Below, piece after piece: positions 1,764-64,000 of a stretch of 64,000 bases of DNA. The stretch is taken from positions 369,892,001-369,956,000 of the forward strand of contig OZ024741.1 of assembly GCA_964016885.1 (NCBI GenBank), read 5' to 3'. The position numbers and the translations under genes were made by a program. The notes under the pieces are model-generated. The model was not told the origin of the DNA, did no database searches, and was given only the letters and a program-made list of their open reading frames with translations. The stretch comes from Eledone cirrhosa. Lineage: Eukaryota. How positions within the stretch are numbered: the stretch's first letter is position 1; each line of letters begins with the position of its first letter.

Positions 1764-2059
1764 ATTTGTAGTTTTTCCAAATTGAAGGATGAGTATTTTA
1801 AACTTTATTTTATCATGAGCTAAGGCTCTATTTCCCTGGATTTCACTAAATTATGTGTGATGAATCTATATCCTGATTCTTTTTGAATTGAGTTTGAATT
1901 ATTTTTCCCGCATCTTACATTAACTATTTTCCCATTTTGACGTTATAGTCACTTATATATTATGAAATACTGTGTGCTTCTTGCTCATAATAATTTCTAT
2001 ACTTTTCATTTATATATATATATATATATATGGTATACATATATATATATATATATGGT

Positions 2060-2146
<87 letters not shown>

Positions 2147-2379
2147 TTAGAAACACACAGGTACATGCGGCCACACACATATATACATGAATGCATCCGC
2201 ACCCAACTGTGAGTTAAGGGTGCCAACTTCACCGATGTTGCTCAATGAATAACCGGGACAGACCAATTCAGTTGAACCAGACTGAACCAGTATCAGAGTT
2301 AAAAATACATTATGAAGAGAGAAGAAACATTTAGATATAATTAGTAATAAAATGTATCATACCTAAACTGCTCCTAAAT

Positions 2380-2469
2380 TCCTCGACTACGTAGTTTCGT
2401 GGCATAAACAAAAACAATATATCATAAAGATATAGAGTCCCTGCGAGGTCTGCCGACTTATCAAGAGGA
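2380..2469 (-). ncRNA. hammerhead ribozyme, U3:A8 core variant (unit 1)
   Basis: minus strand TCCTC-TTGATAA-GTcGGCA..(46 nt)..TGCCAC-GAAA-CTACGTAG-TC-GAGGA; predicted GUC cleavage between 2385 and 2384. Confidence 0.8.
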
Positions 2470-2974
2470 TACCTCATTTTACTAGTCTCAAGAACGCGTC
2501 TACACGACGTGAGAAAGAATCCCAAAAGGCGGAGGGGGAGATAGTCACGCGATATAACGGTCGAGAAACAGAGCTAAGCCTCTTATAACCACGAAGAAAA
2601 TACCACAGAGGCGGAGGGGGTATTCATATCGAGGCCGCAGAAGAGGTGGTGAAGAAGGCTAGAAGTATGAGTAATGGAAGCTTTCCAGTTGTCCCCACAC
2701 CTCAAAGATTGCTCGACCAGAGGGAGTTATTAACAATATATTTAGAAACACACAGGTACATGCGGACACACACATATATACATGAATGCATCCGCACCCA
2801 ACTGTGAGTTAAGGGTGCCAACTTCACCGATGTTGCTCAATGAATAACCGGGACAGACCAATTCAGTTGAACCAGACTGAACCAGTATCAGAGTTAAAAA
2901 TACATTAAGAAGAGAGAAGAAACATTTAGATATAATTAGTAATAAAATGTATCATACCTAAACTGCTCCTAAAT

Positions 2975-3064
2975 TCCTCGACTACGTAGTTTCGTGGCAT
3001 AAATAAAAACAATATATCATAAAGAAATAGAGTCCCTGCGAGGTCTGCCGACTTATCAAGAGCA
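2975..3064 (-). ncRNA. hammerhead ribozyme, U3:A8 variant (unit 2, one stem I mismatch)
   Basis: as unit 1, but the 5' strand of stem I reads TGCTC. Confidence 0.75.
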
Positions 3065-3569
3065 TACCTCATTTTACTAGTCTCAAGAACGCGTCTACAC
3101 GACGTGAGAAAGAATCCCAAAAGGCGGAGGGGGAGATAGTCACGCGATATAACGGTCGAGAAACAGAGCTAAGCCTCTTATAACCACGAAGAAAATACCA
3201 CAGAGGCGGAGGGGGTATTCATATCGAGGCCGCAGAAGAGGTGGTGAAGAAGGCTAGAAGTATGAGTAATGGAAGCTTTCCAGTTGTCCCCACACCTCAA
3301 AGATTGCTCGACCAGAGGGAGTTATTAACAATATATTTAGAAACACACAGGTACATGCGGACACACACATATATACATGAATGCATCCGCACCCAACTGT
3401 GAGTTAAGGGTGCCAACTTCACCGATGTTGCTCAATGAATAACCGGGACAGACCAATTCAGTTGAACCAGACTGAACCAGTATCAGAGTTAAAAATACAT
3501 TATGAAGAGAGAAGAAACATTTAGATATAATTAGTAATAAAATGTATCATACCTAAACTGCTCCTAAAT

Positions 3570-3659
3570 TCCTCGACTACGTAGTTTCGTGGCATAAACA
3601 AAAGCAATATATCATAAAGATATAGAGTCCCTGCGAGGTCTGCCGACTTATCAAGAGGA
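3570..3659 (-). ncRNA. hammerhead ribozyme, U3:A8 variant (unit 3)
   Basis: core and stems identical to unit 1. Confidence 0.8.
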
Positions 3660-4151
3660 CACCTCATTTTACTAGTCTCAAGAACGCGTCTACACGGCGT
3701 GAGAAAGAATCCCAAAAGGCGGAGGGGGAGATAGTCACGCGATATAACGGTCGAGAAACAGAGCTAAGCCTCTTATAACCACGAAGAAAATACCACAGAG
3801 GCGGAGGGGGTATTCATATCGAGGCCGCAGAAGAGGTGGTGAAGAAGGCTAGAAGTATGAGTAATGGAAGCTTTCCAGTTGTCCCCACACCTCAAAGATT
3901 GCTCGACCAGAGGGAGTTATTAACAATATATTTAGAAACACACAGGTACATGCGGACACACACATATATACATGAATGCATCCGCACCCAACTGTGAGTT
4001 AAGGGTGCCAACTTCACCGATGTTGCTCAATGAATAACCGGGACAGACCAATTCAGTTGAACCAGACTGAACCAGTATCAGAGTTAAAAATACAAATATT
4101 ATATCTAAATGTTTCTTCTCTCTTCATAATGTATTTTTAACTCTGATACTG

Positions 4152-4294
4152 AACCTTTAATATTCTACCATACTATTTCATTCTAATACCATTATACATT
4201 TTAAAGGATTGTAAATAAAACGAGTAAATCAGACAAAGCTGGAATTCCTTTTATTAATATAATCTTCTATACACAATCATACACACCCGTGTAT
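4152..4294 (+). mobile_element. 3' tail of PLE-like family A
   Basis: near-identical to 12388-12530 and to the reverse complement of 63657-63795; ends catacacacccgtg then TA-rich sequence. Confidence 0.8.
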
Positions 4295-4371
4295 ATTTTA
4301 TCTATCTATATATATATATACAAATATATGCATATATAGATACATATATATATACATACATATGTAGAAGT

Positions 4372-4715
4372 TATATTTAATTTGTTGGGATACAACAAGC
4401 AAATATTTGTATAACTGATATAAAGCACTCAACAAATTTTTGGAGTAAAAATACAATCAATATATTAACAAATGGAAACTATATTTATAAAACCATATTT
4501 CATTATACATATTTCCTAGGACACCAAACCAATCCAGGAGCTTCCAACCGACATGGTCGCATTCTTTAAGGGTATGTCAATATTTTTTTATAAAACTGAT
4601 CTGTATTATATATTATCTGATGAAAGCGCACCATAATTTGCTTTGGTGTCCTTGAAATATGTATAATGAAATAAATATGGTTTTATAAATATAGTTTCCA
4701 TTTGTTAATATATTG
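4372..4715 (+). mobile_element. PLE-like family C fold-back fragment with hammerhead
   Basis: inverted arms ~4458-4528 and ~4642-4715; related copies at 33655-33832 and 39884-40104. Confidence 0.7.
4613..4669 (+). ncRNA. type I hammerhead ribozyme
   Basis: TTAT-CTGATGA-AAGcGCACCA..TGGTGTcCTT-GAAA-TATGTA-TA-ATGA. Confidence 0.7.
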
Positions 4716-4719
4716 TATA

Positions 4720-7167: not shown

Positions 7168-9215
7168 ATGTTGTTGTTGTTGTGTTATGTGGCAGTGGTG
7201 GCGGTGGTAGTTGTGGTGGTGGTGGTGGTGGTGGTGATTCTGCTGGCGTTGGTTGTAATTGTGTCGGCGGTGGTGTTGGTGGACGTGTTGATGGTAGTGT
7301 TGAGGGTTATTGTGTTGGCGGTGGTGCTGGTTGTGGTGTTGGTGTGGTGCTGGTGTGGTGTTGGTGGTTATTATGTTTGCGGTGGTGTTGGTGGTTATTG
7401 TGTTGGCGGTGGTGTTGGTGGTTATCGTGTCGGCGGTAGTGCTGGTTGTGGTGTTGGTGTGGTGTTGGTGGTTATTGTGTTGGCGGTGGCGCTGGTTGTG
7501 GTGTTGGTGTGGTGTTGGTGGTTATTGTGTTGGCGGTGGTGCTGGTTGTGGTGTTGGTGTGGTGTTGGTGGTTATTGTGTTGGCGGTGGTGTTGGTGTGG
7601 TGTTGGTGTGGTGTTGGTGGTTATTGTGTTGGCGGTGGTGTTGGTGGTTGTGGTGTTGGTGTGGTGTTGGTGGTTATCGTGTCGGCGCTAGTGCTGGTTG
7701 TGGTGTTGTTGTGGTGTTGGTGGTTATTGTGTTGGCGGTGGTGCTGGTTGTGGTGTTGGTGTGGTGTTGGTGGTTATTGTGTTGGCGGTGGTGCTGGTTG
7801 TGGTGTTGGTGTGGTGTTGGTGGTTATTGTGTTGGCGGTGGTGCTGGTTGTGGTGTTGGTGTGGTGTTGGTGGTTATTGTGTTGGCGGTGGTGCTGGTTG
7901 TGGTGTTGGTGTGGTGTTGGTGGTTATTGTGTTGGCGGTGGTGCTGGTTGTGGTGTTGGTGTGGTGTTGGTGGTTATTGTGTTGGCGGTGGCGCTGGTTG
8001 TGGTGTTGGTGTGGTGTTGGTGGTTATTGTGTTGGCGGTGGTGCTGGTTGTGGTGTTGGTGTGGTGTTGGTGGTTATTGTGTTGGCGGTGGTGTTGGTGT
8101 GGTGTTGGTGTGGTGTTGGTGGTTATTATGTTGGCGGTGGTGTTGGTGGTTGTGGTGTTGGTGTGGTGTTGGTGGTTATCGTGTCGGCGCTAGTGCAGGT
8201 TGTGGTGTTGTTGTGGTGTTGGTGGTTATTGTGTTGGCGGTGGTGCTGGTTGTGGTGTTGGTGTGGTGTTGGTGGTTATTGTGTTGGCGGTGGTGCTGGT
8301 TGTGGTGTTGGTGTGGTGTTGGTGGTTATTGTGTTGGCGGTGGTGCTGGTTGTGGTGTTGGTGTGGTGTTGGTGGTTATTGTGTTGGCGGTGGTGCTGGT
8401 TGTGGTGTTGGTGTGGTGTTGGTGGTTATTGTGTTGGCGGTGGTGCTGGTTATTGTGTTGGCGGTGGTGCTGGTTGTGGTGTTGGTGTGGTGTTGGTGGT
8501 TATTGTGTTGGCGGTTATCTTGTCAGTGGTATTGCTGGTTGTGGTGTTGGCGGCGGTGTTGGAGGTTATCATGTCGGCGATATTGCTGGTGTTGGTGATG
8601 GTGTTGGTAGTGACATTGGTGGTGACGTTATTGCCTGTGGTGTTGGCGCTAGTGCTGGTGGTGTTTGTTTTGACGCTGGTGTTCTTTGTAGCTGATAGTG
8701 ACTGTGTCAGCGGCAATAGTGTTGGTGGTGGTGTTGTTAGCTGTGGTGGGGGTGTCGGCGGCGACAATAGTGTTGGTGGTGTTGGTGGTATTGATGGTAT
8801 TGATGGTATTGGTGGTATTGGTGGTATAGTGTTGGCGGTGGTGTTGTTAGCTGTGGTGGGGTGTCGGCGGAGACAATAGCGTTGGTGGTGTTGGTGATTG
8901 TCTGTGGTGGAGTTGATTTTGGAGTTGGCGCTGTTATAGTTGGTGGTGATGATTGTGATTATTTCGGTGGTGGTGTCGGTGCTGACATGTCGGCACTGAT
9001 ATAGTTGGTGGTGATTGTGGTGTTGATTGTGGTAGTTGAAGGAAATTGTGTTGGTGTCGGTGTTGGTTTTGGTGTTGGTGTCGGTGTTGGTGTTGGTGTT
9101 GGTGTTGGCTGCTGTGTTGGTGTTGGTATTGGTGTTGGTGTTGGTGTTGGTGTTGGTGTTGGCTGCTGTGTTGGTGTTGGTGTTGGTGTTGGTGTTGGTG
9201 TTGGCTGCTGTGTTG
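7168..9215. repeat. GGT/GTT-rich low-complexity region with 50-bp minisatellite
   Basis: tggttattgt recurs at 7721, 7771, 7821, 7871, 7921 (period 50); variant blocks recur about 502 bp apart. Confidence 0.9.
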
Positions 9216-11212: not shown

Positions 11213-12030
11213 CTATCTTTCAGATAAAATGCTTAAATAGTCTTGAATATTAATTCTGCCATGAAGGGAAACCATTGGGCCGGCGGATTTCCAAGATATA
11301 GCACCCCAGATCATCACAGATCCTCCTCCATGTTTAACAGTTGGAAGAAGGCAGTCTGGGTCAAATGCTTCTTTTGGCTGTCTCCACACGTATACTCGGC
11401 CGGTGGTGGAAAATAAGGTAAAGGATGACTCGTCCGAGAAAATAACATTCTTCCACTGCTCTAGGGACCAGTTCTGTAGGTTTTTACTCCACTCTAAACG
11501 CTTTGCAACGTTTGTTTTTGAAAGTAGTGGTTTTCTGATTGAAGCCCTCCCGTGAAATCCGGCGAACAGTTTTTGTGGAAACTGGGTTCTTGAGGTGGTC
11601 ATTAAGCTCTGCAGTAATTTTGGGAGCTGTACTTTTGTGATCCTTTCTAACAATTCGCGTAAGAGTCCGACGGTCCCTATCTGAAAGTTTTGGCTTTCTT
11701 CCGGAGTTTTGTTTCTCAAAGGCTGTCATTACTTTCGAGACAGTATTTCTTGATACACCAAACATTTCGGCTGTTTTCGTTACGCTAGCGCCTGCCATAC
11801 GAGCACCAACAATTTGACCTCTCTGAAAGTCTGATAGATCTGTCATTTTAATGAATTTTAATTACCTTTTTCTGATGATATCTGAAAAGAAACAGCAATT
11901 TTAACAAAACATATTAAGCAACACTAATAATAAATCAAAAAACATAAAAATGAACAAGCTTTTCACGGGTTTATAGATATTTCAAAATTATGATGCTATG
12001 ATGCTAGGTGTTTCCATTATTTTGTCCAAC

Positions 12031-12093: not shown

Positions 12094-12101
<8 letters not shown>

Positions 12102-12528
12102 TAAGAGGAATTCCAACTTTGTCTGATTTACTCGTTTTATTTACAATCCTTTAAAATTTATAATGGTATTATAATGAAATAGTATGATAGAATATTAAAT
12201 GTTAAGTGTTAATTGAACAAGTACTTTCATGCTTTCGCAATCTTCAGGTTCATATTCTGTGGTGACAGTCAAGTTTGCAATTTTCAACTGTGGATTTCCA
12301 CAGTTGAAAATTGCAAACTTGACTGTCACCACACATTATGAACCTGAATATTGCGAAAGCATGAAAGTACTTGTTCTATTAACACTTAACCTTTAATATT
12401 CTATCATACTATTTCATTATAATACCATTATAAATTTTAAAGGATTGTAAATAAAACGAGTAAATCAGACAAAGTTGGAATTCCTCTTATTAATATAATC
12501 TTCTATACACAATCATACACACCCGTGT
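12094..12528. mobile_element. PLE-like family A fold-back (201-bp arms, 2-nt spacer, ~30-nt tail)
   Basis: 12094-12294 is the reverse complement of 12297-12497 with a few mismatches; flanked by (TA)n and (TCTA)n. Confidence 0.9.
12214..12252 (-). ncRNA. minimal type I hammerhead ribozyme
   Basis: TGAAC-CTGAAGA-T-TGC gaaa GCA-T-GAAA-GTAC-TT-GTTCA; the mirror copy at 12339-12377 has CTGAATA (G8 lost). Confidence 0.8.
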
Positions 12529-12556
12529 ATATCTATCTATCTATCTATCTATCTAA

Positions 12557-60199: not shown

Positions 60200-61630
60200 A
60201 GTGAAGTCGGACAAAACTAATAATCTTTATGGAGTACAAAAGGACATGTATAACGGCCTTATATTGAAAGAACTAAGGAAAAAGTACAAGGTAGCAAATA
60301 AGGACGAACTTGAAAAACTGAATACAGATGCATCTTGTATAATGCATGAATTAGACATTGAGAATAAAACACAACCCTTCATGCCTAGGAAACCTAAGAT
60401 CAATATGAAGGATCACAAAAGAAACTTTGAAAATGATTTACCAGTCAGATTAATTGCACCCTCTAAATCTGACCTGGGCAAACTTAGCAAAAATATTCTA
60501 GACAGGGTAATACAACAAATTAAAAACTTACCTAATTTATCTTACTTAAAACTATGGAAAGGGACTAGTGAGGTTATCGATTGGTTTAAAGAAATTAAAT
60601 ATAACTATAATAATAAGTTTATTCAGTTGGATATTGCTAACTACTACTAATCTATCACTCCTAATCTACTGAATAAGGCACTAAATTACGCATTTAAACA
60701 TACTGACCTAACTAGCAATGAAATGCACATTATACTATCGGCAAGGAAAACATTGATAGAATTTAATAACCAACTCTGGACTAGGGCAGATAGAAAAAAA
60801 TAATTTCGACATAACTATGAGATCATCAGACTCAGCTCAGGTAACGGACCTTGTGGGCCTATTTATAATTAATTCGCTACATAGAAAAATACCAGGTGTA
60901 ACCGGAGGCTTATATCGTGATGACATGCTTTTACTTATACAAACTAATAGCTGTGAACTAAATAGGAAAAGAAAACAAATTATACAATTTTTTTAATTAC
61001 CATAATCTAAAAATAGAAATAGAGAATAACCATAAAATAGTCAATTTTCTTGACGTAACACTAAATCTCAACACATGTCTTCATTATCCATTTCACAAAC
61101 TAAATGAGAACTTGAATTATGTTAATTTTAACTCTAATCACCCCAGATCTGTTAAAAATACTATAGTGAACTCTGTTCAAGAAAGAATTTCAAGAATTTC
61201 ATCTAATAAAAATATATTTGATGAAAAAGCGCAGTATTACAACGAAGCGTTAGGTAGAGCTGGATATAGAAATGAAATTAAATACATTGATAATAATAAT
61301 AATAAGCAAACTAGCCAAAATAATAACAATTTTAATTATGGTAACAACTTTAGCAACTATAATAGTAAACATTACAATAATTCCAAAAGCCGAAAAAGAA
61401 ATAGAACTAGAAACATATTATGGTTTTCTCCCCCTTTCTCACTAAATATTAAAACCCCTATTGCTAAACTATTCTTTAAAGCTCTTGACACACGCTTCCC
61501 TAGAACACATAAATATTACTCAATTTTTAATAGACACACTATATAATTAACTTACTCGTCCACCAAAAATTTAGCACAAAATATTAATAGAATTAATAAT
61601 AGAAATTTAAAACCTAACCAAAATACCAAT
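60200..61630 (+). pseudogene. Penelope-like element reverse transcriptase (probably Nematis clade), disrupted, GIY-YIG domain absent
   Basis: [113 protein letters not shown]; starts in (TA)n. Confidence 0.9.
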
Positions 61631-63572: not shown

Positions 63573-63647
<75 letters not shown>

Positions 63648-63656
63648 TAAATAAAT

Positions 63657-64000
63657 ATACACGGGTGTGTATGATTGTGTATAGAAGATTACATTAATAA
63701 AAGGAATTCCAACTTTGTCTGATTTACTCGTTTTATTTACAATCCTTTAAAATTTATAATGGTATTAGAATGAAATAGTATGGTAGAATATTTAATTCTA
63801 AGTGTTAATTGAACAAGTACTTTCATGCTTTCGCAATCTTCAGGTTCATATTCTGTGGTGACAATCAAGTTTGCAATTTTCAACTGTGAAAATTGCACAC
63901 AGGAATGGGATATAAGATCACCTGCTGAAGGGGAAAAAGCAGGAGAACACCTATGAGTCATGACATAGGAAGGCTTAGTTCCCTTATAGCATTGGTTCCC
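63657..64000 (-). mobile_element. PLE-like family A copy, probably extending beyond the window
   Basis: 63657-63888 matches the 12094 fold-back arm plus tail. Confidence 0.8.
63810..63848 (-). ncRNA. minimal type I hammerhead ribozyme (family A)
   Basis: identical to 12214-12252. Confidence 0.8.

Follow-up and report, generated by a model that had tools for sequence, protein, structure and literature searches.

In the genome of Eledone cirrhosa, a stretch of 64,000 nt, which we analyzed as a whole and refer to as the window, contains a head-to-tail array of non-coding 595-nt units, each full unit with a predicted self-cleaving ribozyme. The locus raises the question of how such an array enters a genome, that is, from what RNA it was copied, by which enzyme and into which target. 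An earlier note on this DNA had proposed that the array is a retrozyme, that its transcript would be cut into monomers, and that a circle was copied back into DNA by the reverse transcriptase (RT) of a Penelope-like element (PLE) primed at (TA)n.

Structure of the array and extent of the family

The period of 595 nt extends over 2141-4094, which is 3 x 595 + 169 nt; unit positions are numbered here on the plus strand, starting at 2141. Pairwise, the window units differ at 4-7 per 595 sites (98.8-99.3% alike), in agreement with the ~3.3 units at ~99% identity counted in the earlier note, and its finding of no credible ORF also holds, with stop-to-stop frames of at most 80 aa. The 54-bp inversion at the far end (4098-4151) matches unit positions 148-201 exactly when read in reverse complement. 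The insertion was said to end there, but it extends further, through the 3' end of family B, one of the autonomous Penelope-like families described below, and the inversion is a stunted, chimeric second arm. On the left, the array does adjoin (TA)n (2011-2146), as had been noted, but the internal ATATAT described as its end is one of two fixed starts used throughout the family and not chance microhomology. Because TA tracts bound both sides, we treat the block 2141-4298 as one two-armed insertion (Table 1). The plus strand of arm 1 would be first-strand cDNA, with the RNA in the minus sense.

Table 1. Features of the insertion and its borders, in window positions.
Feature	Position	Strand	Basis or remark
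(TA)n target tract, putative primer of arm 1	2011-2140	.	115 of 117 canonical arm starts (77 loci) adjoin TA-rich DNA
Arm 1, 3.28 units from fixed site 1 (long, tailed start)	2141-4094	+	period, start sites, shared position-21 variant
164-nt "tail" between the two start sites	2141-2304	-	start-site mapping
Predicted hammerhead 1, predicted cut 2384/2385	2380-2469	-	sequence, descriptor, constrained fold
Predicted cut-to-cut monomers	2385-2979 and 2980-3574	-	42% GC; fold much better than shuffles
Predicted hammerhead 2, predicted cut 2979/2980	2975-3064	-	private G.G mismatch in stem I (3063)
Predicted hammerhead 3, predicted cut 3574/3575	3570-3659	-	descriptor
Filler, 3 nt, at head-to-head arm junction	4095-4097	.	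junction analysis
Inverted unit positions 148-201, retrozyme part of arm 2	4098-4151	-	exact reverse complement
Family B 3' end (long, tailed), outer part of arm 2	4152-4298	+	94% to L114 3' end
TA-rich tract bounding the insertion at right	4299-4363	.	sequence

The exact ribozyme 23-mer occurs 7,458 times genome-wide and its reversed control 0 times, so the family is not a product of chance. A search with the unit returned 1,810 candidates, and the 40 that were scored are 96-100% identical matches. Both searches find the unit dispersed and not confined to a single locus, and the dispersed copies, together with run contigs, rule out an assembly artefact or a local satellite. The first 100 places of the 23-mer make up 50 loci within 54 Mb, and we therefore extrapolate to roughly 3,000 loci in this genome of 3.0 Gb, which is rich in microsatellites and whose repeats have an octopus-like look. 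Identity to the window unit is 93-99% for long pieces (5th to 95th percentile), and the family is young, with thousands of copies. The 138 loci that we analyzed are the window, 50 unselected loci, 26 taken from the best matches, 60 picked for a site-165 end (see below) and locus L143. ARAGORN detected no tRNA in the unit, which therefore has no tRNA-derived SINE head. A 620-nt contig of run X5 that holds a whole unit without the family B end was considered as an RNA circle and rejected; since that run holds the host SINE at a ratio like that of DNA-like runs, we take the contig as trace DNA.

Other repeats lie elsewhere in the window. A highly homogeneous 42-bp minisatellite (55 copies, 98%) occupies 14426-16736 and a GT-rich array of 50-bp repeats 7333-8604, while at 1250-1290 a micro-insertion of ~20 bp in (TA)n consists of two opposed ends of another repeat family, ends that recur in L038 and L126. 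Four transposon remnants were noted at 11216-11725 (-), 31624-32472 (-), 40002-40871 (+) and 60962-61543 (+). Two of the four are a Tc1-type transposase and an RT fragment by weak Pfam matches under the cut-off, the other two are without a Pfam match, and the remnant at 60962-61543 weakly resembles a PLE protein.

The predicted hammerhead and the fold of the RNA

As the earlier note had stated, each full unit appears to carry a type I hammerhead on the minus strand, and the cuts are predicted where it had placed them. In the motif, a 5-bp stem I is combined with the core UUGAUAA and with a stem II that contains an insert of 46 nt; the remaining parts are GAAA, the palindrome of stem III and the cut site, UC. 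The description "minimal" is not appropriate, given the structured insert in stem II and the palindrome in stem III. The core is the U3-A8 variant in place of C3-G8, a compensated form with reported in vitro activity (Perreault 2011, PMC3088659) that also occurs in PLEs (Cervera and de la Pena 2014, PMC4209133). As described in those two sources, PLE hammerheads resemble the unit in the U3-A8 core and in a palindromic helix III suiting dimeric folding, but they are minimal, whereas stem II of the unit is long and branched and the unit itself is a non-coding tandem. Our own descriptor matched only two of the three window hammerheads, because the second has the stem I mismatch given in Table 1. 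The Rfam hammerhead models gave no match to the window motif even at E 10 (the Rfam matches were microsatellite miRNA noise), and the hammerhead call therefore rests on the sequence and our descriptor.

Constrained to the ribozyme, the fold lies 1.4 kcal/mol above the local MFE, and the duplex formed by the stem III palindrome is predicted at -12.9 kcal/mol. Compared with shuffles, the minus-strand monomer has z -5.5 as a linear and z -5.1 as a circular molecule, and the monomer is well folded on this strand only (-175 kcal/mol vs -126 on the plus strand). The active ribozyme is absent from the predicted global circular fold. Of 289 units, 268 have an intact core and stem III. Where common variants fall on paired sites, minus-strand pairing is kept in 32 of 37 cases, with 60% expected (p 0.0004), an outcome that A-to-G editing of A-U pairs alone would also favour; for the plus-strand fold, pairing is kept at 24 of 41 sites (p 0.46). 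True double-sided covariation is hardly seen because the copies are too young.

Insertion ends and Penelope-like partners

Among the 128 arms of the first 77 loci, 117 begin either at unit position 165 or, give or take a few bases, at position 1, and nearly all of these starts adjoin TA-rich DNA (Table 1). Genome-wide, exact (TA)n-plus-site-165 ends number 2,579, and site-1 ends number 1,053 as counted on the one strand free of overlapping matches; the forward site-1 count of 2,901 is inflated by overlapping matches and was left unused. Site 165 falls at 2305, 2900, 3495 and 4090 in the window units, and loose (TA)n ends in run X1 are found at 2305. Many loci have two head-to-head arms, and wherever both starts of an inverted junction are canonical (70 cases), site 1 is paired with site 165. 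Of these junctions, 39 come from the first 77 loci, among which one is duplicated, and the other 31 from the 60 further loci, which were picked for a 165 end and can test 165/165 versus 1/165 only. Nine further junctions have a non-canonical start. The inner arm ends are scattered and are joined via short overlaps or fillers. We infer that each arm represents a separate first-strand cDNA, with priming from opposite strands. Two side observations concern the junctions: in L043 the whole two-armed insertion was duplicated in tandem, 2,554 nt apart, after inserting, and in L074 (5606-5664) the junction filler is a short unit stretch repeated ~5x, which suggests RT or repair slippage.

Arm starts that adjoin TA-rich DNA at two fixed sites fit the (TA)n priming suggested in the earlier note, and its proposal of a Penelope-like enzyme agrees with the two RT starts, the one-sided tail and the inverted truncated second copy. 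In PLEs, an inverted copy and a one-sided tail have been described (Craig 2021, 10.1101/2021.04.23.441226), and in vitro the enzyme nicks and extends both strands, the tail being the interval between two internal RT starts (Frangieh 2024, PMC11167929). EN+ PLEs as described in these papers and the 595-nt family thus have in common the inverted truncated second copy, the tail at one end, TA-microsatellite or AT-rich targets, two internal starts and extension of both strands. Unlike them, the 595-nt family is without an ORF and its arms are multi-unit concatemers of one small unit, and its tail of 164 nt contrasts with EN+ PLE tails of 30-40 bp in print and 36-64 nt in the local families A-C.

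The same genome holds autonomous RT+GIY-YIG families, which we call A-D and whose 3' ends, one short and one long, both adjoin (TA)n. In families A, B and C the parts follow in the order hammerhead, short end, long end, and the distances from cut to short end and from short to long end are 82/64 nt in A, 125/36 nt in B and 127/39 nt in C, with 80/164 nt in the 595-nt unit. Inverted 5' arms stop at the short end in families A, C and D. The frames of family B match RVT_1 and GIY-YIG, and further family B 3' ends occur in the window at 12094-12542 (two-armed) and 63645-63887. Near-intact Penelope-like frames of 1,096 and 938 aa were found at L111:1875-5162 and L112:4809-7622, with a cysteine motif between RT and GIY-YIG that we take to be Neptune-type; the L112 frame is flanked by direct pseudo-LTRs with U3-A8 hammerheads.

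Several other hammerhead elements were observed. The one at L112:300-720 and L037:920, which may be a helper or a relative, carries a hammerhead of the U3-A8 type; in the core and in the closing pairs of stem II it comes closest to the 595-nt unit, and its end resembles site 1. At window 4446-4716 there is a small two-armed insertion with a canonical-core type I hammerhead (+, core at 4617), a long stem II and a palindromic stem III; it belongs to another PLE-type family, with relatives at window 33752 (-) and in L016, L038, L042 and L050. At L037:6200-7750, next to a copy of the 595-nt family, 310-nt units with a canonical-core hammerhead form a two-armed array, and yet another hammerhead family is present in L235 (minus strand, motifs 466 nt apart), L047:2704 and L025:2381.

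The outer part of arm 2 in the window is 99% identical to other young family B copies (962 candidates). It starts 15 nt beyond the predicted hammerhead cut of family B and ends in TA-rich DNA, and there is no (TA)n between the family B end and the 54-nt retrozyme piece. We lean slightly towards a template switch, in which arm 2 began on family B RNA and then passed to the retrozyme; otherwise, the retrozyme would have inserted beside a young family B copy, followed by a deletion. Several observations speak against a switch: a direct fusion to B is found at 1 of 138 loci, and L047 adjoins family A instead; family B ends are common, with three further matches in the window at two sites; both window arms would become long starts; and family A is nearer to the unit than B in core and spacing.

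The copied template and the place of the family among retrozymes

Based on these data, we believe that the array in the window is probably a retrozyme insertion, the minus-strand RNA of which would cut itself, likely form a 595-nt circle and likely be copied into (TA)n by a borrowed PLE RT/GIY-YIG enzyme. The minus-strand RNA is predicted to cut itself at the hammerhead, and the cut monomer would likely close into the circle. The borrowed enzyme would cut both strands of a TA tract, and the two DNA 3' ends would prime on the same RNA molecule, one at unit position 1 and the other at 165. Each cDNA would go round the template for a random length, after which the cDNAs would be joined head to head, either by microhomology or with a little filler sequence between them, unless one arm were lost.

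Whether a circle was copied can be approached at the cut sites. A cut site is crossed by 114 of 128 arms, at least 2 times by 49 of them, and there are 0 indels at positions 238-252 in about 308 crossings. Because the crossings are seamless, the template was continuous at the cut, either a ligated circle or an uncut multimer. Only 2 of 128 arms end within 5 nt of the cut, which is the chance level, and we reject a linear cut monomer as template, as the arms do not stop at the cut. In L081 and L204, A and B unit types alternate, as from a dimer circle (the last L081 unit breaks the pattern); DNA duplication could also give them. In L083, both arms copy one ordered series of different units, one of which seems locally duplicated, so uncut multimers also serve as templates. 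In vitro, cleavage is not needed for PLE insertion and no reads end at the cut, according to Frangieh 2024 (PMC11167929), and Li 2026 (bioRxiv 10.64898/2026.07.22.740005) reported cleavage in 1 of 9 retrozyme dimers.

Within a locus, the two arms are identical at 1,112 of 1,123 polymorphic sites (57 loci), compared with 77% for cross-locus pairs; L157, a locus with two insertions, accounts for 3 of the 11 differences. In 108 multi-piece loci, 40 rare variants are present in every covering piece of their locus, 22 of them spanning both arms, and they reach up to 8 pieces (L074); the other variants are 14 partial and 201 single. One 22-nt deletion is common to both units of L143, and all four units of the window carry one rare change at unit position 21, which is not of the editing type. 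A-to-G changes on the RNA strand account for 12 of 40 shared and 10 of 201 single-unit variants (p 2e-5; pieces below 92% identity and the duplicated locus L043 omitted), and 8 of the 12 follow a U, the preceding base that ADAR prefers. The opposite change is also raised, at 8 of 40 shared variants, and the strand bias is modest (12 vs 8, p 0.02-0.07 by threshold, with L043 and L157 omitted). Shared variants fit changes on one RNA that were copied into every turn, and a change fixed one generation earlier would look the same. Together, the haplotype, cut-site and alternating-unit data give indirect support for rolling-circle copying.

A more detailed proposal, which we hold tentatively and at somewhat less than even chances, is that a PLE RT dimer carries out double rolling-circle reverse transcription, with starts 164 nt apart on a hammerhead-made circle (sometimes a dimer), that it passes editing scars on to each turn in the two arms, and that it can switch between the enzyme's RNA and the retrozyme; the window would then record such a switch and name family B as the helper. 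Alternatively, the same element and enzyme may have used uncut linear multimers from existing arrays, with the ribozyme mostly idle and long uniform arrays renewed by DNA duplication. The L083 series with its seemingly duplicated unit is in line with this, seamless cut sites are equally compatible with it, and in vitro the main substrate of the PLE was unprocessed RNA (PMC11167929). We nevertheless consider it unlikely, as editing of a multimer should strike its units independently, while in L074 and L082 rare variants recur in as many as 8 pieces across both inverted arms, and A-to-G on the RNA strand is over-represented among such variants; truncation at each round would also shorten the arrays unless they were renewed, and the core is intact in 268 of 289 units. 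If the enzyme jumped from end to end of a single linear cut monomer and copied it again and again, this would mimic a circle and would also spread one haplotype across all units and both arms. Template jumps usually add or drop bases, however, which the indel-free crossings at positions 238-252 do not show, and arm ends are not in excess at the cut, and we give this reading very little credence.

It also seems highly improbable that the unit is the orphan pseudo-LTR of an unsampled autonomous PLE and the arrays by-products of tandem copying, a reading close to one that the earlier note had raised. The order of hammerhead, short start and long start is the same as in families A-C, and family A in particular has the U3-A8 core, a cut-to-short-start distance of 82 nt (80 in the unit) and a similar long end; moreover, 80 of 10,595 GIY-YIG candidates were examined. 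Within those 80 sampled loci, however, the unit is not the terminal repeat of any, and blastn found no homology to it, the best E-value of 0.036 lying in AT-rich sequence. The unit closes on itself without an ORF and is joined to no RT frame in 77 loci, 7 of which have RT-like matches in their flanks, all at least ~680 nt from the unit. A short-stem-II pattern gave 2 matches, both of them deletion copies of the 595-nt family.

Returning to the retrozyme reading, the tandem non-coding units with a predicted type I hammerhead each, the dispersed multi-copy distribution and the 42% GC all fit it, and by the criteria that can be tested the family is very probably a non-LTR retrozyme. Circle templates and PLE helpers were proposed for metazoan retrozymes by Cervera and de la Pena (2020, PMC7229834), to which Li, Clavereau and Pollet (2026, bioRxiv 10.64898/2026.07.22.740005) added phylogenetic links and sizes up to 972 bp. 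The non-LTR retrozymes portrayed in these two papers share with the 595-nt family tandem units that are non-coding and contain a single type I hammerhead, GC below 50%, thousands of dispersed copies, a strongly folded monomer and co-existing PLEs. The unit is longer than the 170-400 nt RNAs of PMC7229834, but 595 nt is within the published 51-972 bp (Li 2026, bioRxiv 10.64898/2026.07.22.740005), and a record size is ruled out. The U3-A8 core and the long stem II insert set it apart from retrozymes as these papers present them. Strict targeting of (TA)n, starts fixed at two sites and arms placed head to head are not described in the available part of 10.64898/2026.07.22.740005, and the words "inverted" and "microsatellite" have 0 occurrences in PMC7229834, in contrast to the inverted arms and (TA)n targets of the 595-nt family. 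Homology to a PLE pseudo-LTR, not found for the unit among the 80 GIY-YIG loci, is reported for 24 of 57 Xenopus retrozyme families. Among non-autonomous elements, Chlamys elements like MRC1 are similar to their autonomous partners in the 3' end, whereas the unit showed no homology to the 80 GIY-YIG loci, and the Chlamys clade is reported as free of hammerheads, whereas the 595-nt family carries a predicted one (Craig 2021). Our literature search found no octopus or cephalopod report, no paper on the 595-nt family and no genomic proof of circle copying, although supplements may hold related motifs. The retrozyme class, the U3-A8 core and the unit size range are already in print; what is unusual in this family is the clear mechanistic footprints of insertion.

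The genomic re-entry of animal retrozymes, with a circle as template and a PLE as helper, is a proposal in the papers cited here. The 595-nt family offers thousands of young events with countable footprints, in which both RT starts are fixed to the base, and candidate helper frames (938 and 1,096 aa, near-intact) occur in the same genome. This makes it possible to test in vitro whether a PLE enzyme copies circular RNA, and whether a tail and an inverted arm arise from one RNA primed on both strands. The window's own addition is a PLE end fused to a retrozyme arm, and a template switch there, if true, would tie the 595-nt element to the family B enzyme.
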